A DNA stretch of 64,000 nt from positions 68,519 through 132,518 of IMG/VR virus record IMGVR_UViG_3300045988_117466. One strand, given 5' to 3'. Positions 3,438 through 50,428 of the stretch are shown in pieces. Made by a program: the position numbers and the translations under genes. Position 1 is the stretch's first letter. Each line of letters opens with the position of its first letter. Source of the DNA: a virus. The notes beneath the pieces were generated by a model, which had not been told where the DNA came from, did no database searches, and saw only the letters and a list, made by a program, of their open reading frames with translations.

Positions 3438-3463
3438 TTCACTCTCACGCCTCCTTTCTGAAT

Positions 3464-10705: not shown

Positions 10706-11024
10706 ATTTGTTTATCATATTTATCAGGTAATTTATCATTTCGATTTAAACATTACTGTACCGCCATTAGCTTGCGGCTCTACTCCTCATAAGAGGATAG
10801 TCGTTGAACCTTATCCTATTCGGATCTTGGCTGCTGATTGTCCATTGTAGCAGAAGCAGGGGATTTAACCTCGCTTCCATATAATTAATTCTTTTTACTT
10901 TCGTAGCGTTCACATCTAGGCATATTTCATCCTTCTGTTGTAGCTTAATTATCTTTAAGACTTTCCAGCAATTAGATAAATTTTCACATATGTATTACTA
11001 CATAAGGTCGCATATGTGGTTTAT

Positions 11025-14000
11025 ACGACAAGTTCGTCTCCTAATTCTCCTGTAAGAGCTCGTTCATCTTGTTTTAATCCCCAATCGCCACCATTAGCAT
11101 GAGCATCTCCAGCAGATGATTTGAGCTTATCCGTTTTCTCTTGTAAATATTTGTTCTTTTCAGCCTGCACAACAGGATTAATTTCTGATAAATCAGAGAT
11201 TTTTGTTGTTCCCATCGCAAGAGCACGGCTTCCAAGCTTCTTAATTGTTCCGTGAGCAAAAGCACCAAATTCTTCAATATCATCAAGCTCATTGTCGTAC
11301 CAGTCTGTTAAGTCATCAACAGTACCTTGAGCGAAAGCATTTGAATATGGAATGAAAGATCCGTGTGCATTTGCTGTACCATGGGCTTTGCCTTTCTTTT
11401 TTTTCTTTCCTGAGCTTTTCTTACCTCCTGAGGGCTCAGAAGGAGTACTACCAGTAACGAAATCAACAATTCGAGTGATATGTTTTGCTGCCCATCCTGC
11501 GATTGTTCCATCAGCAAGAGAGGTGTCCGCCTTAAGTTGTGCAGTGTTTGTAACTTTTTGGCTTTTCCATTCCTGAACTTTTTGATTCGCTTCAGTAATA
11601 TCTCCTTTAAGATGTCCGGTTTTATCAACCTCAATCCCAAGGTATTCTAAAAGCTTTTGATTAGCTTTAGAAGCATCTACGTCTAATTTTCCTTCTTTGT
11701 CAATTGGAATATTTAAAAAATCAGCTATTTCTTTGGTGGCTTTTTTAGTATCTGCATCAACTTTAACGGTTGTAGACTTCTTTCCGCCTTTGCCAAGATT
11801 ATCAATATCTTGTTTTGCCTTTTTGGTATTAGCCTTTACTTCAATAGTAACTTGACCTTTTTTCTTATGTTTATTGTATTCATCAACAAGACGTTTAATC
11901 TCTTTATCAATCTTATCATTGCCAGTTTTTTCTACGGTATTATCTTTGCCAACCTTAAGTCCAGATTTTAACTTATTAAGTTGAGTGTTTAATCCAGATT
12001 TTGTTTTGATTTGCTTTCTAAAAACACCATTATCACTTTTGCCACTGACCATATTGGCAGTTTCTTTTTCAAGTTTAGATACAGTTGTGTTTAAATTTTT
12101 GATTCTGCTTTTTAATTTACTTTGAGCTTCATTAAGTTTTTTCTTTGCACTTGCTTTATCATCGTCAGTTTTAGCATCTTTCCAAGTATCATAAGCATTG
12201 CTATAATCCTTTTGAGCTTTCTGTACAGAATCTCTAGCAGATTTAACTTTTTGATAAGAATTTTTCTTCCAGGATTCATATTTTTCGGTAGAATCTATAG
12301 CGTAATGGTTTTTGTCAGCTGTTGATTTAGCATTTGTAATAATTGAGTTACCATATTCAAACGCCTCTTCAGAATACTTATTACCATATTTGTTTACAAG
12401 CTTTTTATCATTGGAATCAACAGCTCCTTCAAATTTGCTTTCTGCATCTTTAAATTCAGCCTTATCCTGAGCAATCTCAATCTCAAACTTTAACTTCTTG
12501 ACCATCTCATCTGGGATATCTTCGCCAGCGTTTTTCAGTTTAAGAATCTGCTGTCTGTAATCCTCAATCTGTTCTCCTAATGCTGTTTTACCAGCACCAT
12601 CTTTCATATTTTTCCATTTATCAACCAGTTGGTCAACATAACTTTCAGCTTTTTCGTACTGTTCTGTAACAGATTTAAAATCAATCTTACCACCATAATC
12701 TTTTAAACGATTCAGTACAGCTTCGAAAGGTTCAATACCCATACCCATTGCTTTAGCGGCAGTAGCAGTATTAGTGATCTTTCCAGAATATGTACCTTCA
12801 GCAGTTTTCTTTAAAGTACCAAAATCAGTATTAGCTTTTTGGGATTTGGCAGATAAATCATCTAAGAATTTAACCAGACCGCTATCATCAGAAGTAAAAT
12901 ACTTAGTAGTCTTAGCCCATGTCTTATCAAAAGTAGCAGCATCAGTCTTACCAGATGAACTCATAACACTTGTCAATGTTTTGAAATCATCTGTTCCAAT
13001 AAGTCCTTTGTCACGTTCTTTCTTCTGAGCATTGAATGCTTCACGCATTGCTAAGTAAGTATCACCAGAGTCAGCTGTTTCTTTTGCTTGAAGATAATCA
13101 CTCCAAGTAGACTGAGAGTTTGCCTGATTGATTAATTTAAGACGCTCTTTCAACTGATCAAGACTACCTGTCCATTTCTCAGTTTTAGAATTTAAGATAT
13201 CAAAGGCTTGAGATGCTTCAGTAAGATTCAAACCATCAATGAAAGATTGAGTATCTTTATTATCACCAAGCTTTTCCTTGATATCTTCAATCATTGATTG
13301 AACATCTTTACCATCTTTTAAAAATCCTTCAAAATTTCCTTTATCGTCTAATTTGAAATCAACATTAAAAGAATCAGCCAAAGATTTGTTTAATTGCTCA
13401 ATACTAACCCCATCATCTGTGGCAGCCTCTTTAAGCTTATCATAAGCATCTTTGGTATTATTGAGCCAATTCTGAACACCCTTGTTACTAGATTTATCAT
13501 AGCTTTTAATAAACTTATCAAGAGCTCCTTGTGCTTTATCATCTTTAGCAAATTTCTTTGCTGCAGCAATAGTATTTTCTCGTTGTTCCTTGACCCAATC
13601 TTTATCTTTTAGATTATCTCTAGTCGCAGTATCTATGTTATAAGTATTAGATCCTAATCCTGTAAGGAAGCTTTGAGCACGACTACCCAATTTATTATAA
13701 TCAGTAATACTACCTGGCAATGAAGTGGCAATATCTTGATTGTATTGATCAAGAGCCTTTTGGGTTTTAGTAAGCCCAATTTTATATTTTTGAGCATAAC
13801 CTGAGATTTTAGCGATTTCTTCACTAAGATCAGTTCCCTTAGGTAAATAGTCTTCAGTTTTATCCAAGATCTGCTTATATGAACCAATAAATTTGTTCAT
13901 GTCAGCTTGTTTGTATAAATCGAAGGTTTGATCCTTTGGTAATTTCAACACATCTTTGGCAGCCTTGTTGAAAGCAGTAGTTAACTGGCTGGTTTTATCG

Positions 14001-15026
14001 CCTTGCAGACCGTTTCTTAACTGAGTAGTTAAGGTGTCCATGTCGTTGCCCCAGAACTTATCAACACCAGTTCCAGAAGCTTTCTTAACATTCTCTATGT
14101 TACCTTCAACTAACTTGTCCCAAGTTTCATCAGAAGCATATTTCTTTTGTGCGCTTTCTTGTTTCTTCTCCTGAGATTCAATCGCTTTGTCCATCAATCC
14201 AGATGTTTTAGCAATTGCATTTCCTTCTGCATCATATCCTGAAATAAGAGAAGGAGTAGTATCTAAAATTTCCTTGCGGATACTTAAGAATCTCTCATAA
14301 GAAGAAGTATCTAAACTGATGTTATTACCGTATTCGTCTACACCTTTGGATAAAGATTCAAATTCTACTTTATTCCCTTTGAGAGTGGAAATATTACTTT
14401 GGACATCAGACATTTTGTCCTGATAAGTGCTACGGGTTTTATCAGCTTTTTCTACCTTATCTTTGTCATAAGTAGCAGCTTTCTTAATGTTTTCAATTCC
14501 TTTAGAAAGAGCACTTCCTGCAAATTCCATGATTAGACTTGCACCTAATCCTAATAACACATTTGCGGCAAAAGCACCAGCCTTAGCAGCTATGCCAGAA
14601 GCTTTAACATTTTCCACGAAACCTGCTAATCCACCTGCGGCAGATTGAGCAATGCTACCAGATTTTTCAACCTCTTTGTTGAATTCTTCAAGACCTTTTC
14701 CATAACTATTTTTCTTATCACTAAGATCATAATTATTTTGCTTAGCTTGACCGTAAAGAGTACTAGCTGTATCACGACCTTTTTCAGTCTTCATTTCATC
14801 CTGAAGTCGCTTAAACATGTCCTCTTTTTCTTTGGTAGACTTATTACCAAAGATTTCAGGAACCATGCTGTTACTAAAGAAATCCTGCAATCTACTTTGA
14901 TCAGACTGCATATTCTCATAATTAGCCTTACGTCTTGTAGGACTAAGTGCATTCAGAATAGCACTACCAATTGGAAATTCATTTTTACCAGTTTCTTTAT
15001 TGTACTGTACAAGCAAACTGTTTACT
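11025..15026 (-). CDS. tail tape measure protein, exon 2 (about 1334 codons)
   Basis: Open frame begins right after a TGA at 15028-15026 with no SD or ATG. It ends ...LTGELGDELVV, which continues naturally into exon 3. Lys/Glu-rich coiled coil. Confidence 0.75.
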
Positions 15027-15383
15027 CAAGGGCAGGGAAATACCCTATTTTCACACTGGTAAAATATGTATTTGACAATCACTAATGCAATATTCTATAC
15101 TAATTATGTAACAAGAAATATGTATCATATCTCAAAGTAATAACACACATGGGGCTCACAATTCAGTGAGCCTTTTGTGTATCTGAAATTAAAGGAGAAG
15201 AGAGGTTCATAAAGATACCTCTTTTTCGCAATTAACCTTGCAATATTTGGAAACATAAGTTATAATTAGAAACATCATGGAATAATTAGTTCCCCAATTA
15301 ATTATTTTCATACTAAAGGCATTCCTAGGAGGTAGGGATGCCTTTTCTCCATTTATGGGGTAACGATTCGTTCACCCATCAAA

Positions 15384-16190
15384 TTAACTTTCTAACTGAT
15401 CTTCCAGATCCTTAATCTTAGAATCTCTAAATGCAATTTTCTTTCCAGTACTACGATGATTTGTTTCTATGTATCTACGTTTCAGATTGTTTAGTACATA
15501 CTCTGCAGTCATTCTGTACATTGGATTTAGAGAACCAGAAGTTTCAATAATCGATTCAAGTTTATCATCGATCATTGTTACGATTTTCTGCTTATACTCA
15601 GTTGCATTTAGTTTTCTATGATACTCATAGCGGTCTTTCTTTTTTAAATGAACGTGAACATCAATGATCTTATCAACAGTGGCTTCCAGATTTGTGTAAT
15701 CAGATTCTAAAAGAACACGATCAATGTTGCGTACAGAATATTTAATTTTATCTGCATCATACTGTCTCTGAAGCTGACATTCATCTGAAACTGCTACATC
15801 ATATAGATCGTTATTATCTTGCTGAAGTTGTGTGATCAGCTCAATCATTCTCTCAAAAGCATCTGTGTATCTAGCTGTAAAGATAAGAGCTTTGTTACCA
15901 GTAAACTTGTTTACCAGCATTGCAAATCCTTTACGATCAATATAATACATAGGACGCTCCTGGTTATTTAAATCAAGATAAGAGCCGAGGGAAAAATTTC
16001 CGGCGGCTAATTCAGGGATAACTTCTATAAAATGACGAATCTTTTTCATTACATCTGCATGGTCTTTCCCATAAGTCTCAGCCACATTGAGAGAAGTGGT
16101 GTACACATCACCATTGATCTCTTCAAGACCAAATTCCTCATTAATTTCTGCGATTTCACATTCAATAGCTTTCTTTGTTTCTTTTAACAT
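15384..16190 (-). CDS. Rha-family phage regulatory protein, intron cargo
   Basis: N-terminal TTSLNVAETYGKDHADVMKKIRHFI...YYIDRKGFAMLVNKFTGNKALIFTARYTDAFERM matches the Rha (Phage_pRha) pattern. SD AAAGGAGA. Confidence 0.75.
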   Translation of the reverse strand: MLKETKKAIECEIAEINEEFGLEEINGDVYTTSLNVAETYGKDHADVMKKIRHFIEVIPELAAGNFSLGSYLDLNNQERPMYYIDRKGFAMLVNKFTGNKALIFTARYTDAFERMIELITQLQQDNNDLYDVAVSDECQLQRQYDADKIKYSVRNIDRVLLESDYTNLEATVDKIIDVHVHLKKKDRYEYHRKLNATEYKQKIVTMIDDKLESIIETSGSLNPMYRMTAEYVLNNLKRRYIETNHRSTGKKIAFRDSKIKDLEDQLES

Positions 16191-16275
16191 AATTCAATTT
16201 CTCCTTTTAATATAAACTTAATTTCAAAAGGGGTCGCATTTCACGACCCCCTATCAACAACAATCTCACCAAACT

Positions 16276-17082
16276 TTAATCTTCAAGATCCCCAACAACT
16301 CTGTAAACAAGTTTCTGACCTTTACCAGTTACATAAGTCTGTGGAACAATCACATTGCAAATCACATGTTCACCAACTTCAAAACATCCGTTCTCAACGT
16401 ATCTCTGATATGGCATGTTGTCCCGCATCAGGATTCCATTACTTCTCAGAATCTCAAAAAGACGATTCCTTCCAATGTCATATCCATCATTCTGCAACAA
16501 TTTGGCCATTGTGTTCATGTCGATCGTATCAGAAGAAGCAGTAACACATCTTGCAAAATCTACATCTTCTTTGGAAGCTTCAAGTTCTCCACGAAGCTCT
16601 GCGATTGTAGCTTGCTGAATTTCTAATGCTTTGAGTACAAACTCAGCTTCAGACAGATTTTTATATGGAATGTATCCACCTGTACGTCTGATCTGTGGAA
16701 GAACTTCAGATGTTACCCATCTTTTGAAACGATGTAATTTTTCAATTCTCTCTTCAATAAGGGGGTCATTTTGTGACACCCCCTTTGCTTTAGCAGGTTG
16801 CATTAAGAATAATAATGAATATAGTCCTGATTCATTAAGAACTGTGATGTTTTGCATTCCTCCAGCGGTTTGAATTTTTGCCATTGTTTTGTCAGCTTTG
16901 TCAATTCTACGCAAGCTACGCTTGTGATTTGTATCTCCAAAAGCTATGCATACATCTTTTCCAACAAACCAAGGTTCATTGTCAATCTCAACGCATCTGA
17001 TTGATCCAAATTCGTCATTTACGAAGTTCATGATCTGATTGTTATTTCCTACTTCATTTTCTGCTTTTGTTAAATTTGCCAT
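16276..17082 (-). CDS. Bro-N / KilAC (Ant-like antirepressor) protein, intron cargo
   Basis: Bro-N pattern (IRCVEIDNEPWFVGKDVCIAFGD...ESGLYSLLF...FKRWVTSEVLPQIRRTGGY). KilAC-like C-terminus (MAKLLQNDGYDIGRNRLFEILRSNGIL). SD AAAGGAGA. Confidence 0.8.
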   Translation of the reverse strand: MANLTKAENEVGNNNQIMNFVNDEFGSIRCVEIDNEPWFVGKDVCIAFGDTNHKRSLRRIDKADKTMAKIQTAGGMQNITVLNESGLYSLLFLMQPAKAKGVSQNDPLIEERIEKLHRFKRWVTSEVLPQIRRTGGYIPYKNLSEAEFVLKALEIQQATIAELRGELEASKEDVDFARCVTASSDTIDMNTMAKLLQNDGYDIGRNRLFEILRSNGILMRDNMPYQRYVENGCFEVGEHVICNVIVPQTYVTGKGQKLVYRVVGDLED

Positions 17083-17162
17083 ATTAAATTCTCCTTTTCT
17101 TCAGAAAGGTGCACCAAATGGCATAGAACAGATGGTGCTGATGATTTGCTTATCCTTCTATG

Positions 17163-17245
17163 CATATATGGCTAATTTACTACCCCTTTAAAACACCAGG
17201 CTCTACCTAATGTTTTAAGACTCAATTAATGTGGTAAGTCTGCTA
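17163..17245 (-). promoter_or_regulatory. conserved ~80-nt structured element, copy 1 (upstream of the Bro-N ORF, inside intron 1)
   Basis: Minus strand: UUACCAC-AUUAAUUGA-[long stem]-AGGU-AGA-GCCU-[long stem]-GUAGUAA-...AUAUAUG. Homologous to 43548-43630 and 43733-43815, with compensatory changes in the stems. Confidence 0.6.
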
Positions 17246-17698
17246 GAGCAGTATAAAAAGAGTATTAAATTATGTTAATGAGTATTTATAATATATCATA
17301 TAAAATTCATTTCCCTATGTGCAAGCATGTTTCCATGCTGATAATTTTCTAGCGGCACATTCGCATACAGTTCTGATCATCCCTTTCTGATGTCACTCGT
17401 AAGGTGAGTTAACCAGATTCCCATTATGATCGATGGACGTTCCTCTAATATAGAGGCTTCGCTGCGGATTCTGTATAAATATTGATCTTATTACTATATC
17501 TTAGGAATTACCCCTTGCCCTTAATACATCACTGTACTAAGTTAGTAATCAATATCGTTTAACAGTTCCCGTACATAAATTATCAAAAAGTATTTCAGTT
17601 TCGGTTGTTTTCTAAGCAATCTCTTATTTGTATCACCATTTCGATACAAACTCGTTCTGTGTTACCACTAGATTGCTCTGGGCATTGTACATGAGGAC

Positions 17699-20600
17699 AA
17701 CTGATAATTTGCCCTACCCAGCTTTCCTTTCGCTCCTGCGACTCCTAAAGCACCCATAAAGGCTGTTCTAAGAAGCCCAGCTTTAGTTACTAAATTTGTT
17801 ATTTGAGTTCCAGCATCTACAAGTCCTTTGATAAAATCAGAAGAAATAGAAGTGTTCCACATTTCTTGGAAACTTGCTGTCAGCTGATCAACTTTACCTT
17901 GGATGGAATCAAGTTGAGTTTCGTTTTCACGAAGAGCTGATCCTTCTGAGTTTTGTGTTTCGTTGTAGACTTTTTCAAGCATCTCTGGCTTCTGTAAAAT
18001 ACTGGCAACAATATTAGCTCTATTTTTTCCTGCAATTTTCTCTAAAATAGAAGCTTGTTTAAGGTCACCACCATCGGTAGAACCAATTTCGCTCCAGATC
18101 TTACCCAATCCAAGTAAAAATTCATATGGATTTTTATAAGATCCATCATCTTTTAATAAATCAAAGCCTTTGTAGTCGTTTGATGCTACTTTAGTTTGAT
18201 TTTTAATGAGATCTCTCAACTGAGATGTGTTCTGAATGTAACCATCAACATCTTCACCTGCTTCTTGAAGCACATTCATATCAGTGCCTCGAATTCTTAA
18301 GGATACTGTTTTTAAACCAGCTCCAACGCTCTCAGGATTTTGCACGACGGAATTCCCAACTGTAGTAAGAGCAACTGACTGTTCATAGTTAGCACCTGCC
18401 GCCTGTAAAGCACTAGCAGATCTCTGTAATGAACTAGCAATCTCATCTGATGAAATAGGCTCTAAGTTACCGATATTATTCAAAACATCAACAACATTCT
18501 CTACATCATCAGCACCCTTATCGAATCCCTGCATAATAGAAATCAATGCATTAGTAGCATCATCTACCTGCTCAAATTCTGATACATTCATGAGAATACC
18601 TGTCCACTTAGACATCTTCTCAGAATCTTGTGTGTTATAACCTAATCTAGCCCAGTCAGCAGTAGATTTGGTTAATTCCACAGCATCTCTACCGATATCT
18701 TTACCAGTAGCATACATATCTTTTTCGACAGTAGCATAAACATCACTCGTATCACTTGTGACTTTCTTTAACTCTGTCATTGCAGCATCCATTTCTTTGA
18801 TGCTTTCAATTCCTTGTTGGAATCCTTGCCATACGACATCGATTCCACCCATTGAGATCAAGTACTTACTTAACTTAGTAACTTCTTGACCCATATCTCC
18901 AACAATTTGTCCGAACAAACTCTTATATTCAGAACGACTCTTAAGCTGTGATCTAGCAATACCAGTATCCTGATTAAAATTAATAGCATACTTTTCAAGC
19001 TTTCCATCATCTCTTGATCTTGCTTTGATATAAGCAGCCATTCCATTTCTACCCATACTGGTTTCAAGAATGTTACTGTTTACACCAGAAGCTCTAAATA
19101 ATTCTTCAGCTTTAGCTTCATTGAAATCATTTAAGGATAATCCTTCTCCGATAACAGTTCCCTGATTGTTCTGGAGCTTAAATTGGTTTCTAAGTCTACC
19201 ATGTTCAGTAAGCTCAGCGTTCAGTCTATTAAGCTCTCTAATATCTTCCTCAATTTCTTTATTGTCAAAGAAAACATCTCCACTATGTTTTTCTTTTAAA
19301 TCTCTAATTCGGTTAACTGTAGCTTCAACCTTAGTCGCAAATTCTGTTGTATATTGTTCAAGATCTTGACTAACAATGGTCTTTGATAAAGCTCTGTCAG
19401 CAGCATTTTTAACACGATCAGATTTAGGATTAGTATTCCCTAATGCTGTACCATCGTTTGCTCCACCAACATTTCCACCGGCTAAAACCTTGTTCATGTT
19501 CTTCAAGCCAGTAGCAATCTCACCAGTAAGATTAAATTTCTTATTTAAGTTATCAACCAGTCTTGTAACTTCACGAATTGAACTACCAATACCAGCAAAA
19601 GCACCTGCGATCTTAGCAGAATAAGCAGTAGACTTGTCAGCTAGATTAGCAATCTTATTTGTCATAGTCTCAATATCAGAAGCTTTCTTGTCTGTAAAAG
19701 ACTGTCCTGTATTGAATTTAACTTTTAAATCAAGATTCTTTTTCAGATCATTGATAATCTTCTCAACAGTAACTAAATCGTCTAATACAGCATCAGTATT
19801 GATACCAACTTTAATAGGCTCAGAAGCTTTTTCTCTTAAAGAAGTAAGCTTGCTTTCGGCTTGTGTTAACTCTTCATCATTAACATTGATGTCAATTTTT
19901 GTGTCTCCGCTGTTAGAATCCTCTTTAAATTTTTGAGTTGAAGTAATAGCTTTCTCAAGATCTTCAACATTGCCTTTAAAATTAACCGCAACGTCAATAG
20001 CATCCTTAGAGCGAAGTTCATTTACTTGTTGAAGAATGTTATCAATATTCTCTGTATTAGCTTTAAAATTAATAGTAATATCTATATTTTCTTTTGATCT
20101 TAGTTCATTAATTTCTTGTAAAATTGTATTGAACTCGGAATCGTTTGCTTTAAGATTAACAACGATATCTTTGCCTTCGTAAGAAGCAATCTTTTCATCA
20201 ACCTTAGCCAATGCAGATTCTAACTGAGAAGTGTCAGCAGTAACTTTTACAGAAGATTCTTTAGGGTGTTCACTTTCTGTAACACTGTTTGTCTTAGTTT
20301 CAGTAACATTTCTGCTTGGAAATTCACGAATTGCATCTTTGTTTTTGCTTAACCATTCACGGCTTTCTTGAGACCAAGGAGTTTCAATAGTAGCTCCTTT
20401 TTCAGCTTTAATAGATGTGTATGTATCAACAGTTTTAACAGCTTCTTGAAGACCTTTGGCTTCCTCGGCATAGATATTTTCTCCGTTCTTAATCTTTTCA
20501 TTGAATTTCTGGATATATTCTCTAGCGCTTTGGAAAGTACTGATCAGGTCTTTGTTACTCATGTCTTTCATGTCAGCAGGCATTTCAAAATCTTTATCAA

Positions 20601-21789
20601 CTTCCCTTTGATGGAGTTCTAATTTTTTAACTGCTTCAGATAAGAATTGTGTAATATTTTTATCAACAGCATGAGTAGTAGAACCTTCTTCTGGCTGATA
20701 ATTGCTTAGTATTTTACTGTAATACTCGGCTTTCTGTAATTCCTCATCGGTAAGAGTTTCACCTTTGGATTGTTTTTCCATCAGGTTCTTACTGCCGGCT
20801 TTTGCACCGTTGTATTGTTGAGGACTAATTGCTTGTCCTTCTTGAAATTTATATGGTTTACTAGAGTCAAACCCAGAAATCAAAATACCTTCTTGGGCTA
20901 AAATATCACTCCATTGTTTATTGAATTGGTTTTTAAGTTTATTGGTTACTCCTGTAGTCTTTTTGATATTTCTATCAGTGCTAGTCATAGCCTGAGTAAG
21001 AGCCTTATTAACCTGTTTAACAACATCCTCTTCGATCGGAGATAAAATATTTTTTAAGTCGATTCCCTGGGCTTGGAACAGGCTTTTATAACCTTCTGTA
21101 CCTGCAAAATCAGTTTGTCCTGTTAGCAATTCTTTTATAAACTTTTGCCTAGAAGTAATAGTATTTCTTAACTCACCAGCCTGTTTGAGCATTTCATCGT
21201 TCTTACTCCAATCAGAATTTGACATTAAACCATGCAGTTCTTCAAAAGCTTTTCCAATATCTTCTTGAGCTAGCATTCCAGCCATTGCATATTCTTTAAA
21301 ATCATTTAAAGAGATACCATTTTTAGAATTACCATGTAATTCGTTATATTGTGTTTTAGATTCGTTGTAAAAATCTTTATATTTATCTTGCTTATAAGTC
21401 TTTTTTTGTACTTCGTGTACCTTAGAAGCAGCTCTTGTGGCAAGATCACTGTCCTCGTAGCTACGTTTAGAAACCTTGCTTAAATTGTCGTTCTTAATTT
21501 TTTCAAGATCATTGTAAGTAGTTTTAAGATTCTTTAACTTCTTTTCTGCATCGGCCAAATCTTTAGATTCATATACAAATTGAAAATTTGTTAATCCAGT
21601 TTTATCAATATAACTTCTGATGCTTTTAGCAACTTTATCCATAGAGGATTTATTGATATTAGCACCAATAGGTACTTGGACTTGTTTAAAACCATTTACT
21701 ACTTCGCTTTTAGCTTTTTCTAAAGAGGCTTGATCAACGTCAACCCCCATAGAGGCAGTAAAAGAAATTACTTGTGTAGTTTCTGCCAT
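17699..21789 (-). CDS. tail tape measure protein, exon 1 (about 1363 codons)
   Basis: ATG at 21789 with SD GGGGGTGA. Contains a TP901-type tape-measure core-like segment (...ELTKSTADWARLGYN...DDATNALISIMQGF...SSLQRSASALQAAGANYEQSVALTTVGNSVVQNPESVGAGLKTVSLRIRG). The unspliced frame stops 10 codons into the intron (TAG 17668). Confidence 0.8.
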
Positions 21790-41174: not shown

Positions 41175-41184
41175 TTGGACATAG

Positions 41185-41257
<73 letters not shown>

Positions 41258-41258
41258 A

Positions 41259-41294
41259 CAAAAAGAGTACATTGTAACTACCAACAATGTACTC
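41259..41294 (-). terminator. hairpin plus U-run immediately 5' of tRNA-Thr
   Basis: 10-bp stem GAGUACAUUG/CAAUGUACUC followed by UUUUU on the minus strand. Could be a terminator or an RNA-processing hairpin. Confidence 0.45.
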
Positions 41295-41441
41295 AAATTT
41301 AGAAAAGAGGTATAAATTATGATTCCTACAAGAAATCTTAATAGCTTTGTAAATCTTTCTGAGGTATGAAACAACAATAGAAAAGCGCAATAATCAAAAC
41401 TTCACAAGAAAGGAGATAATATGATTCCTCAGAAAGATTAA

Positions 41442-41513
41442 CAGGGATAACTGGATTTGAACCAGTGAATACAGCAGTCAAAGTGCTGTGCCTTACCGCT
41501 TGGCGATATCCCT
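41442..41513 (-). tRNA. tRNA-Gln: tRNA-Gln (anticodon UUG)
   Basis: Acceptor AGGGAUA/UAUCCCU, anticodon stem CAGCA/UGCUG with loop CUUUGAC, T-arm ACUGG-UUCAAAU-CCAGU; 72 nt. Confidence 0.85.
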
Positions 41514-42126
41514 ATATGTATTTTAATTTTAAAGCAGGTCTTCACCTTACAGTCATTTGTGGAATAGTTTGTTCTGCAACATAGTAGATAAGTCTGAGCT
41601 TTGAGGAGCGACCTCTAACTTCTTACCTAAGTCTAAAAGACCAGTTCTATGACATGATCAATACATGCAATGTCAACCCGCCATTCAGAATTAAGTTTTA
41701 TTGTTATATACTCTATTAGCATATATATTCATTTTGAATTTGAACTTACCCTTAACTGACTTGAGCGACATACCAGCGACTTTTCTTATACACTGTCTTT
41801 TGAACAGCTTCACATCAAACTACATTATTTGGCTTTTCCACCTTTTACGTACCTGCCAGAGTACGCATTGAAGTGGATTATTCTCCACAGGAGCGTCTAT
41901 TGTTGTAGCGAAAAGTTCTGTGCGTTAACCAGACCAAAATGCTGCACAATATCCATTTGCTTGAGAGTTTCTCTCTTGTCCATATCAAATCACTCCGACA
42001 TAAAAAGAGACACAAAGAACGTATCCGTACAATGTATCTCTCCAATTCGACATATGTGCCTAGAATATTTCTCGGACTCATGGCATTGAGTTTTATAACC
42101 GAGTTGCTTATGTTTTAAAATACAAA

Positions 42127-42198
42127 CACCCTAAGCTGGATTTGAACCAGCACGAACGGTTTTGGAGACCGTCATTCTACCAACTAAATTATTAGGGC
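42127..42198 (-). tRNA. tRNA-Trp: tRNA-Trp (anticodon CCA)
   Basis: Acceptor GCCCUAA/UUAGGGU, anticodon stem ACGGU/ACCGU with loop CUCCAAA, T-arm GCUGG-UUCAAAU-CCAGC. Confidence 0.85.
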
Positions 42199-42205
42199 GA
42201 TATTA

Positions 42206-42279
42206 CTGACATGACAGGACTCGAACCTGCAACACCAACGTCCGTAGCGTTGTGCTCTGTCCAGTTGAGCTACATGTCA
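42206..42279 (-). tRNA. tRNA-Arg: tRNA-Arg (anticodon ACG)
   Basis: Acceptor UGACAUG/CAUGUCA, D-arm GCUC-AACUGGACA-GAGC, anticodon loop CUACGGA, T-loop UUCGAGU. Confidence 0.85.
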
Positions 42280-42322
42280 TTAAAATTCGACCTCAATCCA
42301 CATAGGATTTTGAGGTACTTTC

Positions 42323-42408
42323 GTCCCTGTTGAGGGAATCGAACCCACTCGTGACCGAAGCCATCTGATTTACAGTCAGATCCGCCTCCTTAGCGGGATA
42401 AACAGGGA
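42323..42408 (-). tRNA. tRNA-Tyr: tRNA-Tyr (anticodon GUA), class II
   Basis: Acceptor UCCCUGU/ACAGGGA, anticodon loop CUGUAAA, long variable arm, T-loop UUCGAUU; 86 nt. Confidence 0.8.
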
Positions 42409-42450
42409 TATAAGCCCGTGAGCTCGAAAGACATCACAGGACAACCTAAA

Positions 42451-42536
42451 CGCTGCGACAAGGATTCGAACCTTGAGGTCACTAGGACACAATAGTTTTC
42501 AAGACTACGCCGTTATAACCATTTCGGTACCGCAGC
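42451..42536 (-). tRNA. tRNA-Ser: tRNA-Ser (anticodon UGA), class II
   Basis: Acceptor GCUGCGG/UCGCAGC, anticodon loop CUUGAAA, long variable arm, T-loop UUCGAAU; 86 nt. Confidence 0.8.
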
Positions 42537-42541
42537 AAAAG

Positions 42542-42633
42542 CGTACAGAGTGGGCTACGACCCCACGTTACATGTATTCGCATGTAAACCCAATTAGCAG
42601 TCGGGCGCCTTAAACCAACTCAGCCATCTGTAC
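42542..42633 (-). tRNA. tRNA-Ser: tRNA-Ser (anticodon GCU), class II
   Basis: Acceptor GUACAGA/UCUGUAC, anticodon stem CCCGA/UUGGG with loop CUGCUAA, long variable arm, atypical T-loop GUCGUAG; 92 nt. Confidence 0.7.
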
Positions 42634-43406: not shown

Positions 43407-43529
43407 TTATTTACTCTTGGAATCTTTTTTGATCTGCTGGCGTTTCTTGAATGGAACTGGTTTCAATCCCCATGCAGTTCTTAAATCTTCCAGTGAGTTG
43501 TAATGTTCAGTTACTGTATTCCTTTTCAT
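43407..43529 (-). CDS. mini-ORF, 40 aa, basic (below the ORF-track cutoff)
   Basis: ATG at 43529 preceded by GAAAGGAAGGA, immediately downstream of structured-element copy 2. MKRNTVTEHYNSLEDLRTAWGLKPVPFKKRQQIKKDSKSK. Confidence 0.3.
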   Translation of the reverse strand: MKRNTVTEHYNSLEDLRTAWGLKPVPFKKRQQIKKDSKSK

Positions 43530-43547
43530 TGTCTATATCCTTCCTTT

Positions 43548-43630
43548 CATATATCACTATTTTACCACCCCTTCAAAACACTAGGTTTTACCTGGGTTTC
43601 TGAGGGGTATTTAATGTGGTAATTCTGCTC
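43548..43630 (-). promoter_or_regulatory. conserved ~80-nt structured element, copy 2
   Basis: UUACCAC...CCCCUCAGAAAC-CCAGGU-AAA-ACCUAG-GUUUUGAAGGGG...GUGGUAA, then AAAUAGUGAUAUAUG and an SD. Confidence 0.6.
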
Positions 43631-43732
43631 ACCACTCAAAAATTTGTCTTAAAATACACTTTTTAGTATATATAATTAACTTTATTTTCTTTTTGAAAAT
43701 CTGATCTTTTGAGCATTTCCTTATCCTTCCTT

Positions 43733-43815
43733 CCATATATCACTATTTTACCACCCCCTGAAAAACGTAGGTAGAACCTAGCGTTTTCAGGGTCAATTAA
43801 TGTGGTAATTCTTTT
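43733..43815 (-). promoter_or_regulatory. conserved ~80-nt structured element, copy 3
   Basis: UUACCAC-AUUAAUUGA-CCCUGAAAACG-CUAGGU-UCU-ACCUAC-GUUUUUCAGGG-G-GUGGUAA, then AAAUAGUGAUAUAUGG, an SD and a 17-codon mini-ORF (43663-43716). Confidence 0.6.
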
Positions 43816-43823
43816 TGCTGGCC

Positions 43824-44678
43824 TTATTTTTTGTCAGAATTATAGTATTTAGTATATCTATTTAACTGCATTTCATTCTTACAAGAAATACAATACTGTC
43901 TAAGCCGTCCTTTACGATGCTTTTTCTTTTTTGAGATGTCTCTAAAAGGTTCTCCACAACAAGAGCATACAGAAATCTCAGGATATCCAATAAAGTGAAG
44001 ATATCTGTTCCCAAGATTCTTGAAGTCTGTAATTTCAAGAGCGACATCTCCTGAATCAGCAAGAATATCTACAGAGAAGTTTAAGCTATTAACTTTCTTG
44101 CTCATTGTTATACAATCGCTTCTGAACAGTCTGCCGATTATTTGGCATCTACGTTCTCTTGTACCTACTGTATTACCCAATGAGAATAAATCTTTGTAGT
44201 CTGTATTCACCCAGCTGTTATTTTGAGGATTCAGAGCATTATAATACTTGGCCAAACAAAGAGCAGTGAAGAGGATCTTTTGATCTCTAAGATTCTCTAA
44301 CCCATTTATAGTTTCCATTTCAGATTCATAGATCGGCAGTGAATCAATTTCTACAAGAGGATACTTTTTAGCTTTATGAATTATCTCATCAATGCATGAA
44401 TACCATTTGGCTTCTCTGTAGCTCTCACAGGACTCTTTTAAGAACTCATTGATAGTTTTATATACCTCTGCAGGTTCTAAGCCTTCCTCGTGGATATAAT
44501 ACTTTGCAAGCAGGGTAGCAGTATATGGGATACTGCCTTCCAGCTCTTTTGTTTCTAAAATTTTTTCTACCAGTTTTTTTTCATTTAGTACGATATTAAT
44601 AACAATCAGCCTCCTCAAACATAGATGATTCAATTTGTTTAATAGTTTCAATGACGAAAGAATCTCCGTCATATTCAA
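43824..44678 (-). CDS. hypothetical protein with C-terminal zinc ribbon
   Basis: C-terminus CSCCGEPF...CISCKNE. The ORF-track start overlaps the RNA polymerase 3' end by 83 nt, so the true start is probably internal. Confidence 0.45.
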   Translation of the reverse strand: MNMTEILSSLKLLNKLNHLCLRRLIVINIVLNEKKLVEKILETKELEGSIPYTATLLAKYYIHEEGLEPAEVYKTINEFLKESCESYREAKWYSCIDEIIHKAKKYPLVEIDSLPIYESEMETINGLENLRDQKILFTALCLAKYYNALNPQNNSWVNTDYKDLFSLGNTVGTRERRCQIIGRLFRSDCITMSKKVNSLNFSVDILADSGDVALEITDFKNLGNRYLHFIGYPEISVCSCCGEPFRDISKKKKHRKGRLRQYCISCKNEMQLNRYTKYYNSDKK

Positions 44679-45738
44679 AATCTCCTGATTCAGCTCTTAC
44701 AGGATAAGAGATCTGGTGATAGTTTCTCTCTAAGAGTCTTTGGACAAGAATGTCTCCAAACATGTCCCATACAAACTGCTTACTCTTACCATTGGTGTAG
44801 CAGAGATCAAGAAGAATGTCACAAGCTTTCTCAGGATCAGGAACAGCAGTAGCAACAGCTTCTCTGAACAACATGACTCGATTATTGATAATGTCTGTTA
44901 CATTTAGACCAAAACCACCCTTACCGTTGATCAGAGCATTTAAGGTTTTCATTTTCTTTGAATATTCACTGTACAGCTTCTTAAGAGCATAATAATCATT
45001 CTTGTTGTACTCATGATCTCTTTTGAGAATGGAGTAATCAAAATCTGTTTGTGTGTTCAACTTCTTTAAGTATCCATCAAACTCATCCTCAAAGAGCTTA
45101 CAGATTCGATTCATTACACAAGGCCCTGTACCTACAGGCAAGAACTTATAGTAGTGGTCTAAGAATTCCGCTTCATCCTCTGTGATAGGTTCTGTATCAG
45201 CTTTCTTGAGCAATTCATCAATCGTACACCCAAACCAGATGATGCATTTGTCATTTGAAGCTTTCACATAATTTGTATAATCCTTTCTCAGATGAGAGTA
45301 GATGTAGATCATGAAGTATGGCTTCTTGTCAGCTACGATTCTCTGGTTGAATTCTTTCCGCTTACGATCCTTTGGTGAGTCTTCAGGATGGATGTTATTT
45401 TCCTTGCGATTGTACCAGTAAGATGGTATTGGTTTACACACGATGCCTTTTAGACGATCAATACTTCCTTGTTGATATAGCTGACCACAAATGATTCTGT
45501 AATCTAGTTCTTTAAACTCATCACTGTCAGGGGAGTAATGAGACTGTACTTCAAACTGAGAAGTGATGATGTTTGTTGTGAAGCCAATTTCGTCTCCAAA
45601 GGCATCCTTGTAAGCTTTTAGGATGTCTTTCTTTTTGGGAACAATCTTATTAGCCTTACGCTGCACACAAATGATTGATGGAAGAGGACGATTGTTCTCA
45701 ACAAGTATTCTGTTGTTAGTTGTGAAGAAGAGGTCTCC
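44596..45738 (-). CDS. single-subunit two-barrel RNA polymerase (YonO/RdRP-like), exon 2 (380 aa)
   Basis: The frame is open 72 nt upstream of the ORF-track GTG and begins GDLFFTTNNRILVENN..., with no SD or ATG. It supplies the GD of the DFDGD motif. Confidence 0.65.
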   Translation of the reverse strand, partial: GDLFFTTNNRILVENNRPLPSIICVQRKANKIVPKKKDILKAYKDAFGDEIGFTTNIITSQFEVQSHYSPDSDEFKELDYRIICGQLYQQGSIDRLKGIVCKPIPSYWYNRKENNIHPEDSPKDRKRKEFNQRIVADKKPYFMIYIYSHLRKDYTNYVKASNDKCIIWFGCTIDELLKKADTEPITEDEAEFLDHYYKFLPVGTGPCVMNRICKLFEDEFDGYLKKLNTQTDFDYSILKRDHEYNKNDYYALKKLYSEYSKKMKTLNALINGKGGFGLNVTDIINNRVMLFREAVATAVPDPEKACDILLDLCYTNGKSKQFVWDMFGDILVQRLLERNYHQISYPVRAESGDFEYDGDSFVIETIKQIESSMFEEADCY

Positions 45739-46081
45739 CGATGTACCCTCGGTTTCCCGATATTTATGGAGAAAGGGGACTAGACTATATCATTACACAG
45801 CATAGGTCTTACACTGTGATGCTCGGCACTTCCCTTGGGGAGTTTCACCCTTTTGGTACTCTACTTGCTACCGATACCGTATTCCTCGAATATCAGTGCT
45901 TTGGTTAGTCGTTTAACTTTCAATTTCTTGCTTAGCACAGGATTACCACCGACTCTACTCGCTGAGGCTTCCCTGTTAGCACATGTGTTAACTTCCATTT
46001 CCTGAAGCTACTGTATGTCACATGTACACCTTACATTTGTAAGTTCACCGAGTTTTACTTCGACAAATGGTATGCTCAGAT
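45739..46081 (-). mobile_element. ORF-less group I intron (343 nt) in the RNA polymerase gene
   Basis: Minus-strand R GTTAAACGACTAACC (45903-45917), S ATGATATAGTCTAG (45780-45793), Q-like AATCCTGTGC, P-like CTAACAGGGAAGCC. U at 46082 precedes the 5' splice site and G at 45739 is the last intron base. Confidence 0.8.
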
Positions 46082-47731
46082 ATCGAAGTCGCAGCCGTTA
46101 AGTGATTCACATGTATTGTCCCAATTGTTGATCACACAAATGGATGGGAGATACTGGAACCAATATGAAAGCTGCTCATTGTTCTTCACTTTAAGATTGA
46201 CGATATTGTAATGGCTTGTCATTGGAGCTCTGAAACAAGCTACTTCATCAACCTGTCTATCAACCCAATGCTTGTGATACATTTCTCCTGCTTTAAGTAA
46301 TCCTGTGACTTCAAGCCCAAACATAGACTGCATGAGAGCATATGGATCACCAGCAACGATTGAATAATTACCTTTCACTTTGATGCGTCCAATCTTAGCA
46401 TCTTGGATTCGTTTCTTAATGAGCGAATGAATCTTAGATCGAATGAAAGGATCTTTGATCATCTCAGGTTCAGCTATGAGTGCCTGGATGTATGTAAAAG
46501 CATCTGACTGTAAGATGTTCTTCTCAGTCATATTCTTACCTCGTAGGAAGAGCAGAGTCTTTCTGTAATCCATTCCAAGAATGTCTTTGATCTCTTTTAT
46601 GGTTGGCTCACAAAGCTCTCTTATTTGGGCGTCTGTGAGGTGATAGCTCTGTAAGAACTGATAGTTAAGATTTCTTTCAGTATCACATTCTTGTTCAGCT
46701 GTCTTGGCAAGAGCAAAGTGATAATCATACTTCTCAATGTTCTCTAAGTAGTCTTCCATGGAATCATATGCGTCCCAGAGTTTAAACATAGATGTTGTAA
46801 GTATCACCTGAGCGTCTCTAACGTCCCTAGGATGGCCCCAAGCATCAATAATGGTATAAGTGTTGGCTACGTTCTCTGCAAAGGCTCTAAAGTCCATACA
46901 GTGAAGCATACCTTTACAGAATGGCCAACCTCTCATGTTGCCAGATGGAAGAGGAGTATCATAATCTCCATTCAGTTCACCATTCCATTGCTTTGCAAGT
47001 TCTGGAAGAACTAATCCTTCTCCATCAGATCCATTGTGCACAAACTCTTGGTTATCAAGAAGAGTTACTTCTGGTTCATCTGAGTTTGTATCATCCACAT
47101 AAAGAGCTTGTCCCTTAAAGACCGTCTCACAATCTTGTACAACAATCACTCCTGATGGTGGAGTAACAACTGTAGAAGAAGAGCAGAAGAGTGCTTTGTA
47201 TGCTCCAAGCTTGTGAGTTATGATCGGAACCTCTTTGTTCCTTCCTGCATCTACTTTCTCACAGAGAGTATCGTACACGTTGTCACTGACAAAGATTACA
47301 ACACTGTTCTTTAATCCTCCTGTAGTTCCTAAGAAGAGATTGTAGTGAAGATCGTTTACAATGAATCCATGCTTGCTACAGTAGTCATAATCTTTCTTTG
47401 TGTCGAAGACCACTGTGAGGTAGTCTGTTTGGAATCGACATTTGTACAAGTCATTGTAGAGTAGTGAGATAAGTTCTTTGCTTCCTCTGTTGGCTGAAAG
47501 CTCTTTGATCTTCTTTCGGATTCTTTTTGCTCTTATGTCTGAATCATAGTCATGGATTAATGAGTCGATTGTTCTTAATGCTTCAGAGCTTGAAAGAGTA
47601 ATAATGTCATCTCCATTCTCCCTCGCTTCATTGAGTGGTAGAGAAAGTTTCCACTTCGCCTTTCTTAACCGGCTGCTGTGTAGTTTGTAAATATATTTCT
47701 GACTCGTCTTTTGCTTAGAAATAATGATCAC
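46082..47731 (-). CDS. single-subunit two-barrel RNA polymerase (YonO/RdRP-like), exon 1 (550 aa)
   Basis: Probable GTG start at 47731 after AAAAAGGAG. Ends ...EVACFRAPMTSHYNIVNLKV...VINNWDNTCESLNGCDFD|, resembling the R-x-P...G-x-D-x-D-G-D region of YonO / cellular RdRPs / beta-prime NADFDGD. Confidence 0.65.
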
Positions 47732-47936
47732 TCCTTTTTTGATTTTTGTGTATGTTTTTACAGTAAATTGGAAAAATATGGAAAGCGAGTATATTTTCAT
47801 ATAAATACTCATTGTTACTACGTAACAACAAGTATTTTATAAAAATAGGATAATTAAATATTATATAATACTTAATTTTAGTAATGTATTAATAGTTTCA
47901 GACTTATCTTGAAACAAATGTCGATTTTATGCGGGT

Positions 47937-49231: not shown

Positions 49232-49279
49232 TATTTCATTTAAGTACGTTTAAGGAGGCTTAGACTAGGATTTTTGTGT

Positions 49280-49474
49280 CAAGTGTTTTTTGAAAATTTC
49301 TTAAAATAATGTTTTCTTTGGCTGTTTTACTGGGCTTGTTCTGGATTTTTCTTTAACTCATTGTACTTATATAGGTAGAAATATGGCTGTTTTATGCGAT
49401 TGTACAAAAATAAAATAAATTAATTTTTTATACGCTAAAGTATTGACTTTTGAAAAATCAAGTGTTTTTTGAAA
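49280..49474 (+). repeat. direct repeat pair CAAGTGTTTTTTGAAA
   Basis: Identical 16-mers at 49280-49295 and 49459-49474. Related TTTTTGAAAA strings lie at about 49545 and about 49925. Confidence 0.7.
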
Positions 49475-50428
49475 GAAATTTAAAAAAATTTTTACCGTGT
49501 GGATTTCTCAGAGAGGGTGTTTGCATTTATATAAGAAGAGCCTGGTTTTTGAAAAAATTTCAGAAAAGTGGGTTTAAAGCAGAACAGGTGTTCTATATTT
49601 TAGAGTGTGTTAAGAGGTGCGTTTCTGGGGAAAGTTTTTATGAGGGGGGAGGGGTGTATGTGTGGTGTTCGGAAAGAAATGTGGAGGATGTTTTTAGAGG
49701 GTTTTGAGGGGTTAAGTGGCGTAGATGTGGGGTGGAGAAACGTCTGGCTGAACTTGTGGTATAGAATTACCAGCTATACGAATATCAGCAAAACTGCGAT
49801 TTAAAAATAGTTTTAAGTAGCCCCCTAAACACTTTTAAAAGTCTGTAAATAACTATTTACTTGCGTTTTTGATCAGAAATAGATAGTCAAAAAAGCACGT
49901 ATTTATGCGGGTTTGAGACCGTTTGAAAAGATTTTTAAAAATATTTTTTTTAGGGTATTGCAAAATTTTGGTGGGCATGGTCTTATACAGTTGTTCCAAG
50001 GGACAAGGAACTAAAACAAAAGTTCAAAAATTTAAAAAGAAAGAAGATGATAAAAGCCCAGTGCGTGGGCAGAACGCACGAACAAACGAAAAATTGAAAA
50101 TCTTTCCTAAAGTAGGCGTTCCCTACCACTAAGAAAGTAGTCATAGGTACAGCGACTATAAACCAGTACCCGCACTTTGACAAAATAATACTCTTTTCAA
50201 GTCTTTGGCGGTTAGTCCGTCAATCACATGGTTAGTCCATGCCCCAAAAGACCTGAATCGTTAGGTATCGACATACGCAAAAACTCTACTTTGCTACAAG
50301 TGGACTTTGCCAAAAAATCGGTTTTGATTCTATATCGGGAAAATACAGTAGCAGGAAATTTGCCCTTTGACGTTGGAACGTATTACGTCCAACTCATAAA
50401 CAATTATTTTAGTTTGTTGAGTCTTGAA

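Follow-up and report, generated by a model that had tools for sequence, protein, structure and literature searches.

Neither phage-specific promoters nor junctions of a terminator with a promoter are new as kinds of element, and they form the background to the element described here, a three-copy repeat (copies A, B and C) on the minus strand of a 64,000-nt stretch of the IMG/VR virus record IMGVR_UViG_3300045988_117466 (the window). In bacteriophage T7, the first promoters for the phage polymerase, behind gene 1, have an early terminator (TE) and ribonuclease III (RNase III) R sites nearby; the promoter ends in TATA, which is followed by a G-rich purine start. The promoters of the N4 virion polymerase, a T7-like enzyme, carry template-strand hairpins whose stems have 5-7 perfect bp and in which bases of both loop and stem are conserved. 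The Bs-RNase III sites of SP82 and SPO1 and the T7 R sites are repeated, conserved intercistronic hairpins of ~60-80 nt, which contain internal loops and are located before ribosome-binding sites. In SPbeta, the late genes are transcribed as one operon by the RNA polymerase YonO, and a YonO-dependent primary (5′-PPP-enriched) start was located just downstream of yonO/yonN, at position 2225998 of Bacillus subtilis 168 (Forrest et al. 2017, PMC5467207). YonO has no sigma-binding domains, and the SPbeta promoter sequence was left undefined (PMC5467207); no later definition of a YonO-family promoter was found in the searchable literature. The motifs used by the related P23-45 polymerases are short and AT- or GC-rich, and their paper makes no mention of hairpins. 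The window comes from a gut phage that infects Firmicutes; it contains genes for terminase, portal and tail proteins and encodes a YonO-like polymerase of its own. The element is tentatively read here as a two-part junction, in which an RNA hairpin would abut a promoter or initiation site of that phage polymerase.

A repeat finder identified a direct-repeat family of three members of 103 nt on the minus strand (17139-17241, 43524-43626 and 43710-43812; identity 69-75%), and the three copies align on this strand without indels. The 5′ flank AGAMTTACCACATTAA and the 3′ flank GGGGTRGTAAAWTAGYSATATATG-N-A-NRGAAGGATA are near-invariant among the copies, and the 40 nt inside the flanks are far more diverged. 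The 22-nt pattern of the 3′ flank matches exactly three sites in the window, namely copies A, B and C, against 0.00 expected by chance, which agrees with the repeat finder and bears out the three copies reported in an earlier note on this DNA. No fourth copy was found in the 64-kb window by searches allowing up to 3 mismatches or by a search for the motif with an upstream hairpin. None of the 4227 Rfam families matched any copy at the gathering level, and permissive thresholds yielded chance-level matches only (E ≥1); the remark in the same note that the element fits nothing nameable accords with this. Exact-pattern scans of IMG/VR recovered only orthologous copies, in about 14 near-identical phage contigs, and a 15-mer scan was swamped by chance matches. 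Two further matches were rejected as chance occurrences, one within a coding sequence (locus L029) and one in the Enterocloster phage CB473P3 (locus L122, position 4863), inside the coding sequence of a homologue of the 284-aa open reading frame (ORF) described below.

Each copy is predicted to fold on the minus strand into a nested hairpin of -26 to -30 kcal/mol (z-scores -2.3 to -4.4), and the minus-strand fold is better than the plus-strand fold in all three copies. The 4-5-bp apical stem and the 3-nt loop (AGA, AAA or UCU) of the earlier note are present in the copies, with the loop varying among them (TCT, AAA, AGA in DNA letters); the stem extends into a bulged helix of at least 20 bp. 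This helix, with 21 consensus pairs and an asymmetric internal loop, fits the RNase III criterion of about two turns of double-stranded RNA, and the copies also provide the stable G+C-rich RNA hairpin on the transcribed strand that characterizes intrinsic terminators. Pairing was analysed in 19 distinct sequences, comprising the three paralogues and orthologues from the about 14 near-identical IMG/VR contigs. In the 21-pair consensus structure, 92.7% of the cells pair, as compared with at most 58.6% when the partners are slid, which confirms the hairpin. Full compensation, as implied by the compensatory changes that had been claimed for the middle stem, is limited to one pair: both-sided changes occur in only 1 of the 21 pairs (columns 27-55; G-C, C-G and U-A), and the other changes are either mismatches or alter one side in a G-U-compatible way. 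The stem's A/U tracts (A4/U4 core) are conserved, not covarying, the pairing register of the lower stem differs among copies A, B and C, and the outer stem TTACCAC/GTGGTAA contains a C.A mismatch in copy A (GTAGTAA). A covariance model of the 19 sequences, which had been proposed as a check and which is dominated by the flanks (effective sequence number 1.28), recovered the orthologues and, beyond these, only weak matches in a sister clade (E 0.8-10). The hairpin is thus real and maintained, with modest covariation within this genome, and the stronger structural evidence comes from distant relatives. In copy C only, an upstream GTGGTGA (43630-43645, minus strand) can pair with the TTACCAC arm in competition with the outer stem; this pairing is the minimum-free-energy fold of copy C, and no such partner exists in copies A and B.

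Copies B and C stand precisely where the polymerase module gives way to the tRNA/ROOL and structural genes, co-oriented with the late genes. In tblastn searches, the polymerase showed 28% identity to SPbeta yonO (E 1e-17), 40% to its counterpart in Clostridium phage c-st and 39-44% to those of Enterocloster phages. It is split into three ORFs (578, 356 and 284 aa), a layout that is also seen in c-st (CST179/178/177); elsewhere, Bacillus phage BUCT082 has ORFs of 924 and 278 aa and SPbeta has a single chain of 839 aa. The 284-aa ORF (ORF284) is the last gene of the module, and copy B begins 9 nt past its stop codon. The locus thus combines two features of a YonO-type late promoter, that is, an encoded polymerase of the YonO family and a site directly 3′ of it that heads co-oriented late genes.

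The same position was analysed in relatives, which were collected through alignment of the N-terminal parts of the polymerase; 80 IMG/VR loci were fetched of 475 confirmed, and their polymerases are 43-50% identical, near-identical orthologous contigs excepted. A homologue of ORF284 directly follows the polymerase in 82 of 82 related loci tested. The DNA after its stop codon was extracted and reduced to 45 non-redundant lineages, 56% of which contain a single hairpin of -20 kcal/mol or below within the first 135 nt, compared with 11% of 141 random windows (hairpin strength against random windows from the same loci, Mann-Whitney p = 6e-4). Unsupervised expectation maximization (EM) returned the 3′ arm of the hairpin, GGGTTTgaGGGGtGTTTGA, as motif 1 (log-likelihood 186, versus at most 81 for shuffled sequences), and the copy in the window scores 18.7 bits. 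When only the sequence behind motif 1 was used, EM returned motif 2, tTwTkATGgAg.G.A.wA (log-likelihood 143, versus at most 77 for shuffled sequences), which is exemplified by TTCTTATTATGTAATAGATATATA, CAGTATTATGGAGGGAATAGTAAC and CCCTATTATGGAAGGAAAGAAC in relatives and by GTGATATATGGAAGGAAGGATA in the window. In a sister clade with 50% polymerase identity, GAGTATATATGAAAGGGAAGGTATAAGG is kept and the hairpin before it is of unrelated sequence. By visual inspection of some 38 lineages, the ATG lies 17-23 nt past the inner stem in about 30. An alignment of 14 diverged hairpins with RNAalifold gave compensatory changes in 6 of 8 predicted pairs, the consensus energy being weak owing to register shifts. 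One large group of relatives (loci L158, L165, L169, L172, L175, L179, L187 and L188) has a tandem repeat of the hairpin's 3′ arm, such as GGTTTGAGGGGT GTTTGATGGGGT, which offers the 5′ arm two alternative partners; the second partner gives a perfect outer stem of 11 bp in L165, L175 and L183.

With the two strands searched independently, the hairpin of the coding-sense strand was stabler in 24 of 31 lineages (mean difference -4.1 kcal/mol, Wilcoxon p = 2.4e-4), and 62 G.U pairs were counted on the sense strand versus 25 on the antisense strand. This bias is the mark of a structure under selection as RNA, or at the least in the non-template strand, and speaks against a DNA hairpin on the template strand as in N4. 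The element does resemble the N4 promoters in that a hairpin with a 3-nt apical loop stands a short distance before a presumed start, in a phage that encodes its own polymerase. It differs from them in its irregular helix of at least 20 bp, its variable loop and its sense-strand-biased stability, and it has neither a short perfect stem with a conserved loop nor a template-strand hairpin coupled with a T7-like polymerase. The earlier note offered the element as a promoter or recognition site for the phage-encoded non-canonical RNA polymerase, as an RNA-processing site or as a translational operator. Of the promoter proposal, the general part gains from the position, the family-conserved 3′ block and the resemblance to SPbeta described below; the N4-like mode of hairpin recognition is not supported, as the polymerase is not T7-like, the loops vary, the hairpins are irregular with bulges and G.U pairs, and the sense strand is the stabler one.

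In SPbeta, the primers used for primer extension (supplement of PMC5467207) map to the minus strand of AF020713 at 3574-3551 and about 3358-3332 of locus L121 (AF020713 57000-65000). A unit GGATAATAGTCATTTATGAGGGTGCG is found at L121 3452-3435, in the centre of this amplicon, with its ATGAGGG at AF020713 ~60440, and a second unit, CTAATGTTCATTTATGAAGGTAAAG (…GTTCATTTATGAAGG), is located 157 nt upstream of it. Both units have hairpins that end 19 nt before the ATG (ACTGATAT-TTGG-GATATCAGT and AACTGC-11 nt-GCAGTT, each with an outer stem), and the second hairpin shows a compensatory change from G-C to A-U in a relative with 86% YonO identity. The region of the YonO promoter (P_YonO) resembles the locus in the window in several respects. 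The polymerase is of the same family, the site lies just 3′ of the polymerase gene, where a long late transcript starts, two tandem units each consist of a hairpin and, 19 nt beyond it, (T)CATTTATGA(A/G)GG, and the late transcript begins with non-coding RNA, comparable to the tRNA/ROOL setting downstream of the element. The differences are the shorter SPbeta hairpins (6-8 bp plus the outer stem), an HU gene between polymerase and units, and a one-chain polymerase in place of three ORFs and an intron. An earlier SPbeta lead at about L121 3130 was dropped, as it lies downstream of the reverse primer. The gap between yonN and yonK (L121 ~2153-3835, minus strand) spans 1.7 kb with no annotated gene; it contains a match to the DUF3800-VIII RNA (RF03075) at 2410-2475, with 47.5 bits, more than the gathering score, and the candidate promoter motif recurs there in inverted form on the other strand (GATAATAGCCATTTAT), ~75 nt away from the first.

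The purine-rich end of the conserved block had been described as a Shine-Dalgarno (SD) sequence that always follows the element. This description fits copies B and C, where start codons stand 7-8 nt after the purine block. It does not fit copy A, in which the conserved GAAGGATAAG has no start codon after it and the Bro-N/KilAC (ANT) ORF at 16276-17082 has its own AAAGGAG about 60 nt downstream of the block. In several related lineages, the block is followed by tRNAs rather than by an ORF. As copy A shows, together with the tRNAs or other non-coding sequence that follow the block in relatives, the purine block belongs to the element and is not merely an SD.

According to the two-part reading, the first part would be the nested hairpin of ~60 nt, acting at the RNA level at the 3′ end of transcripts arriving from upstream, which for copies B and C would be host-transcribed messages of the polymerase genes. 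The hairpin may be derived from an intrinsic terminator that closed the polymerase operon and would still be terminator-like in relatives; T-runs after the hairpin in several lineages (L174, L193, L143 and L200) were counted in favour of this origin, and in many others only TGTTTGATG is found. The element shares with intrinsic terminators a G+C-rich base and a sense-strand hairpin directly after a stop codon, and the hairpins at the same position in relatives have T-runs behind and A-runs upstream. It departs from them in the U-tract that is missing from the three copies, and in that copies A and C do not end an obvious host-transcribed unit. The earlier note was right that no U-run follows, and its conclusion that the element is not a terminator was drawn too quickly in view of the T-runs in equivalent hairpins of relatives. 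Here, where the U-tract appears to be lost, a role as insulator, 3′-end stabiliser or processing hairpin would be likelier. The second part, the invariant block GTRGTAAAWTAGYSATATATG-N-A-NRGAAGGATA adjoining the hairpin, would be the promoter or initiation region of the sigma-independent YonO-type polymerase, an identity suggested by position and comparison. Initiation would take place at or next to the conserved ATG/G, and the purine-rich, initially transcribed stretch would double as an SD in copies B and C. Together, these two copies would act as a tandem late promoter placed before the tRNA/ROOL and structural genes, and copy A would be a duplicated unit driving or re-boosting the distal tail genes along with the inserted ANT and Rha pair. 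The presence of only three copies in 64 kb fits late transcription of a single operon as in SPbeta and argues against a general intercistronic signal.

The logic of such an arrangement would be that of T7, where the host polymerase makes the phage polymerase, a boundary follows and phage-specific promoters come next; T7 also has an AT-rich melting stretch before a purine-rich start, and hairpins without U-tracts between cistrons. The T7 polymerase is a single-subunit enzyme with a fold unrelated to that of the two-barrel enzyme, there is no sequence similarity between the sites, and the element, unlike those of T7, fuses hairpin and candidate promoter at a fixed distance. What would be new is a candidate YonO-family promoter with an obligatorily adjoining hairpin, conserved from SPbeta to phages of gut Clostridia, a proposal that is possible rather than probable.

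Several observations count against the two-part junction. In the three copies, no U-tract stands 3′ of the stem, GGTGGTAAAATAG or GTAGTAAATTAG coming next, and a terminator scan detected nothing terminator-like at copies B or C, so that the terminator role is drawn from relatives only. The spacing between hairpin and ATG is 2, 5, 28-35 or about 55 nt in a minority of lineages. A weight matrix made from the family motif also matches ordinary start codons (ATG plus purines), which renders genome-wide scans uninformative. In SPbeta, c-st and some gut lineages, the T-rich half of the motif is one side of a dyad whose other side lies downstream, which would fit an RNA starting further upstream, or a protein operator. 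As for SPbeta, the agreement of AATAGTCATTTATG with AATAGTGATATATG of the window at 12 of 14 positions was found by inspection, post hoc; the link depends on primer positions, position 2225998 itself not having been placed on the sequence; and a simple form of the motif, searched as a regular expression in 72 YonO prophage loci, gave no conserved site beyond close relatives of SPbeta.

Two alternatives assign the hairpin a different task. YonO-type polymerases, from SPbeta to the gut Clostridia phages, might use a hitherto undescribed composite promoter with a mechanistically required hairpin ~19 nt upstream of a T-rich/ATG/purine initiator, a generalization that seems unlikely at present; such a hairpin may serve loading or melting, or act as a nascent-RNA or non-template-strand signal, instead of being a mere adjacent terminator. 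In the specific form of a hairpin that is extruded or formed in single strands as the recognition or melting device, with a start ~20 nt downstream at the AT-rich/ATG junction, the idea, which was the leading one of the earlier note, is distinctly unlikely. The tight spacing of 17-23 nt in most lineages, the three copies of the window and both SPbeta units would agree with it, as would the retention of the hairpin by copy A within the late region at ~30% sequence divergence, the maintenance of a stem whose sequence varies among lineages, and an enzyme without sigma-binding domains whose promoter is undefined (PMC5467207). However, a constant spacing may also arise if a promoter of ~20 bp simply abuts a terminator, the bulges, internal loops and many G.U pairs are poorly suited to cruciform extrusion, the stabler strand is the sense (non-template) strand and thus the wrong one by comparison with N4, and some lineages have the hairpin 2, 5, 34, 35 or ~55 nt away or a small A/T hairpin instead. 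Cleavage of the hairpin in read-through polycistronic RNA by RNase III or a different nuclease specific for double strands, which would uncouple the upstream message and create a 5′ end ahead of a ribosome-binding stretch, is a rather doubtful explanation. A helix of ~22-28 bp with internal loops, the sense-strand bias, the missing U-tract, the intercistronic position and the start codons 7-8 nt behind the block in copies B and C are all in keeping with it, and the T7 R sites and the SP82 Bs-RNase III sites are likewise repeated, conserved intercistronic hairpins. The element is distinguished from these sites by its very low copy number, three for the dozens of gene junctions that a late region of >40 kb contains, and by its conserved single-stranded T-rich-ATG block, for which RNase III has no need. 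Moreover, there is no ORF to activate at copy A or in the lineages in which tRNAs follow, and the primary YonO-dependent start in the equivalent region of SPbeta would be left unexplained.

The remaining alternatives dispense with the phage polymerase. A host sigma-A promoter overlapping a terminator, with the -35 region in the 3′ arm of the hairpin (TTGAAG, TTCAGG or TTAAAG) and the -10 region TATATG or TATTAT 17 bp downstream, can be accommodated in many lineages with spacers of 16-19 bp, and a few are near consensus, such as L144 (TTTACA-19-TATAAT). It is nevertheless very improbable, given that a scan for sigma-70-type promoters calls no site at the copies, that the best manual fit is 4/6 plus 4/6 with a G at -7, that the equivalent of -11A is an A in 41% of the lineages while the next G is 87% conserved, and that the late start of SPbeta is YonO-dependent. 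Also improbable is a protein operator, a nut- or put-like antitermination site or a functionless duplicated remnant, as might be suspected from the dyad symmetry about the motif in SPbeta, c-st and some gut lineages and from the origin of the three copies by duplication; the invariant flanks, the pairing-preserving drift of the stem and the family-wide conservation argue against junk, and no similarity to boxA/boxB or put sites was detected, Rfam being blank here. Compared with these alternatives, the two-part junction is retained as the tentative reading.

YonO-family polymerases are minimal relatives of the cellular multi-subunit RNA polymerases, and their promoter was undefined when the enzyme was described. 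If the two-part junction is true, a family-conserved candidate would supply a testable start point and a testable role for the hairpin, making promoter recognition by sigma-less two-barrel enzymes directly approachable. In uncultured Firmicutes phages, by the hundreds, the early-to-late switch would be better annotated, and an orthogonal expression signal might be gained. If the block is a mere ribosome-binding context beside the relic of a terminator, the finding would be an ordinary one.

Copies B and C arose by a tandem duplication of 186 nt (43630-43890 versus 43444-43704, minus strand; repeat family D15, with alignment), which took in the last ~40 nt of the 284-aa gene. The earlier note placed a mini-ORF after each tandem copy. 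The 40-aa ORF directly behind copy C stands as the first coding sequence after the element, and mini-ORF 1, behind copy B, is a chimeric by-product of the duplication and probably not a gene. In the related contig IMGVR_UViG_3300029021_000016 (L016/L130), the mini-ORF is absent and there is only one element, a recombinant whose hairpin is that of B and whose downstream part is that of C. The coordinates of the element and the associated features are listed in Table 1.

Table 1. Positions of the three element copies, their parts and associated genes in the window.
Feature	Position	Strand	Remarks
Copy A, whole element	17139..17245	-	repeat, fold, alignment
Copy A, outer arms	17237-17231; GTAGTAA 17183-17177	-	one C.A mismatch
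Copy A, inner hairpin	17221-17185	-	three U.G pairs
Copy A, TATATG and purine block	TATATG 17168-17163 (ATG at 17165); purine block 17162-17151	-	
Copy B, whole element	43710..43815	-	repeat, fold, alignment
Copy B, outer arms	TTACCAC 43808-43802; GTGGTAA 43754-43748	-	
Copy B, inner hairpin	43792-43756	-	
Copy B, TATATG and purine block	TATATG 43739-43734 (ATG at 43736); purine block 43733-43722	-	purine block GAAGGAAGGATA
Copy C, whole element	43524..43630	-	repeat, fold, alignment
Copy C, outer arms	43622-43616; 43568-43562	-	
Copy C, inner hairpin	about 43607-43568	-	
Copy C, TATATG and purine block	TATATG 43553-43548 (ATG at 43550); purine block 43547-43536	-	
Mini-ORF 1	43663..43716	-	MLKRSDFQKENKVNYIY; chimera from the 186-nt tandem duplication
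40-aa ORF	43407..43529, start 43529	-	first coding sequence after the element, directly behind copy C
ORF284	43824..44678	-	284 aa; last gene of the polymerase module; = c-st CST177, annotated YonO C-terminal-like
YonO-like two-barrel RNA polymerase	44596..47812	-	exon 1 46076-47812; exon 2 ORF 44596-45666
Group I intron in the polymerase gene	about 45745-46078; Rfam match 45760-46051	-	26.8 bits, E 1e-4, below the gathering score

Copy A is located after part 1 of the tape-measure protein, and the inserted ANT and Rha genes lie beyond it. The alignment of part 1 (17668-21789) with a 1510-aa tape measure from an Enterocloster phage covers residues 72-438 of the latter, where part 1 ends; part 1 is followed by the KilAC/Bro-N antirepressor gene (16276-17082), the Rha gene (15384-16190) and an ORF of 1331 aa (11021-15016, minus strand). 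The tape-measure gene does look split, as the earlier note had it. The intron named as the cause is not matched by any Rfam intron model between 15000 and 17800, and the interruption (15017-17668) may be an intron, a split gene or a moron insertion. The element is also not part of a group I intron as judged from Rfam, the sole intron signal being that in the polymerase gene (45760-46051), with none around copy A.

The intron in the polymerase gene splits the catalytic metal-binding motif DFD|GD, with exon 1 ending in ...NGCDFD and exon 2 starting with GDLFF.... Its assignment to group I is supported by short matches to intron-bearing phages, since sequences from Herelleviridae, AR9 and PBS1 phages, either introns or unannotated, match 45711-45791 and 45856-45920 at 80-86% identity.

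A full-length ROOL RNA (RF03087, 303.7 bits) is found at 41516-42127 on the minus strand, immediately 3′ of the element and the 3D-domain gene and embedded in a cluster of seven tRNAs (Thr, Gln, Trp, Arg, Tyr, Ser and Ser; 41184-42633, minus strand). This position would place ROOL at the start of the presumed late transcript, and in SPbeta a large non-coding region likewise follows the YonO start.

Other repeated sequences occur on the plus strand of the window. Between 55300 and 63250, many small paralogous ORFs start with MWK(I/V)GDRV..., each after a conserved sequence of the type AAAGAAAAACAA(C/T)TATTACTAAAG; these repeats constitute families D2-D5 and D8-D12 and resemble an early-gene cassette with an upstream signal of its own. 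The sequence TCAAGTGTTTTTTGAAA... occurs twice, at 49279-49314 and 49458-49493, 179 nt apart. Both copies are located in the intergenic region from which the polymerase operon runs leftward and the early genes run rightward, and could be operators or early promoters.

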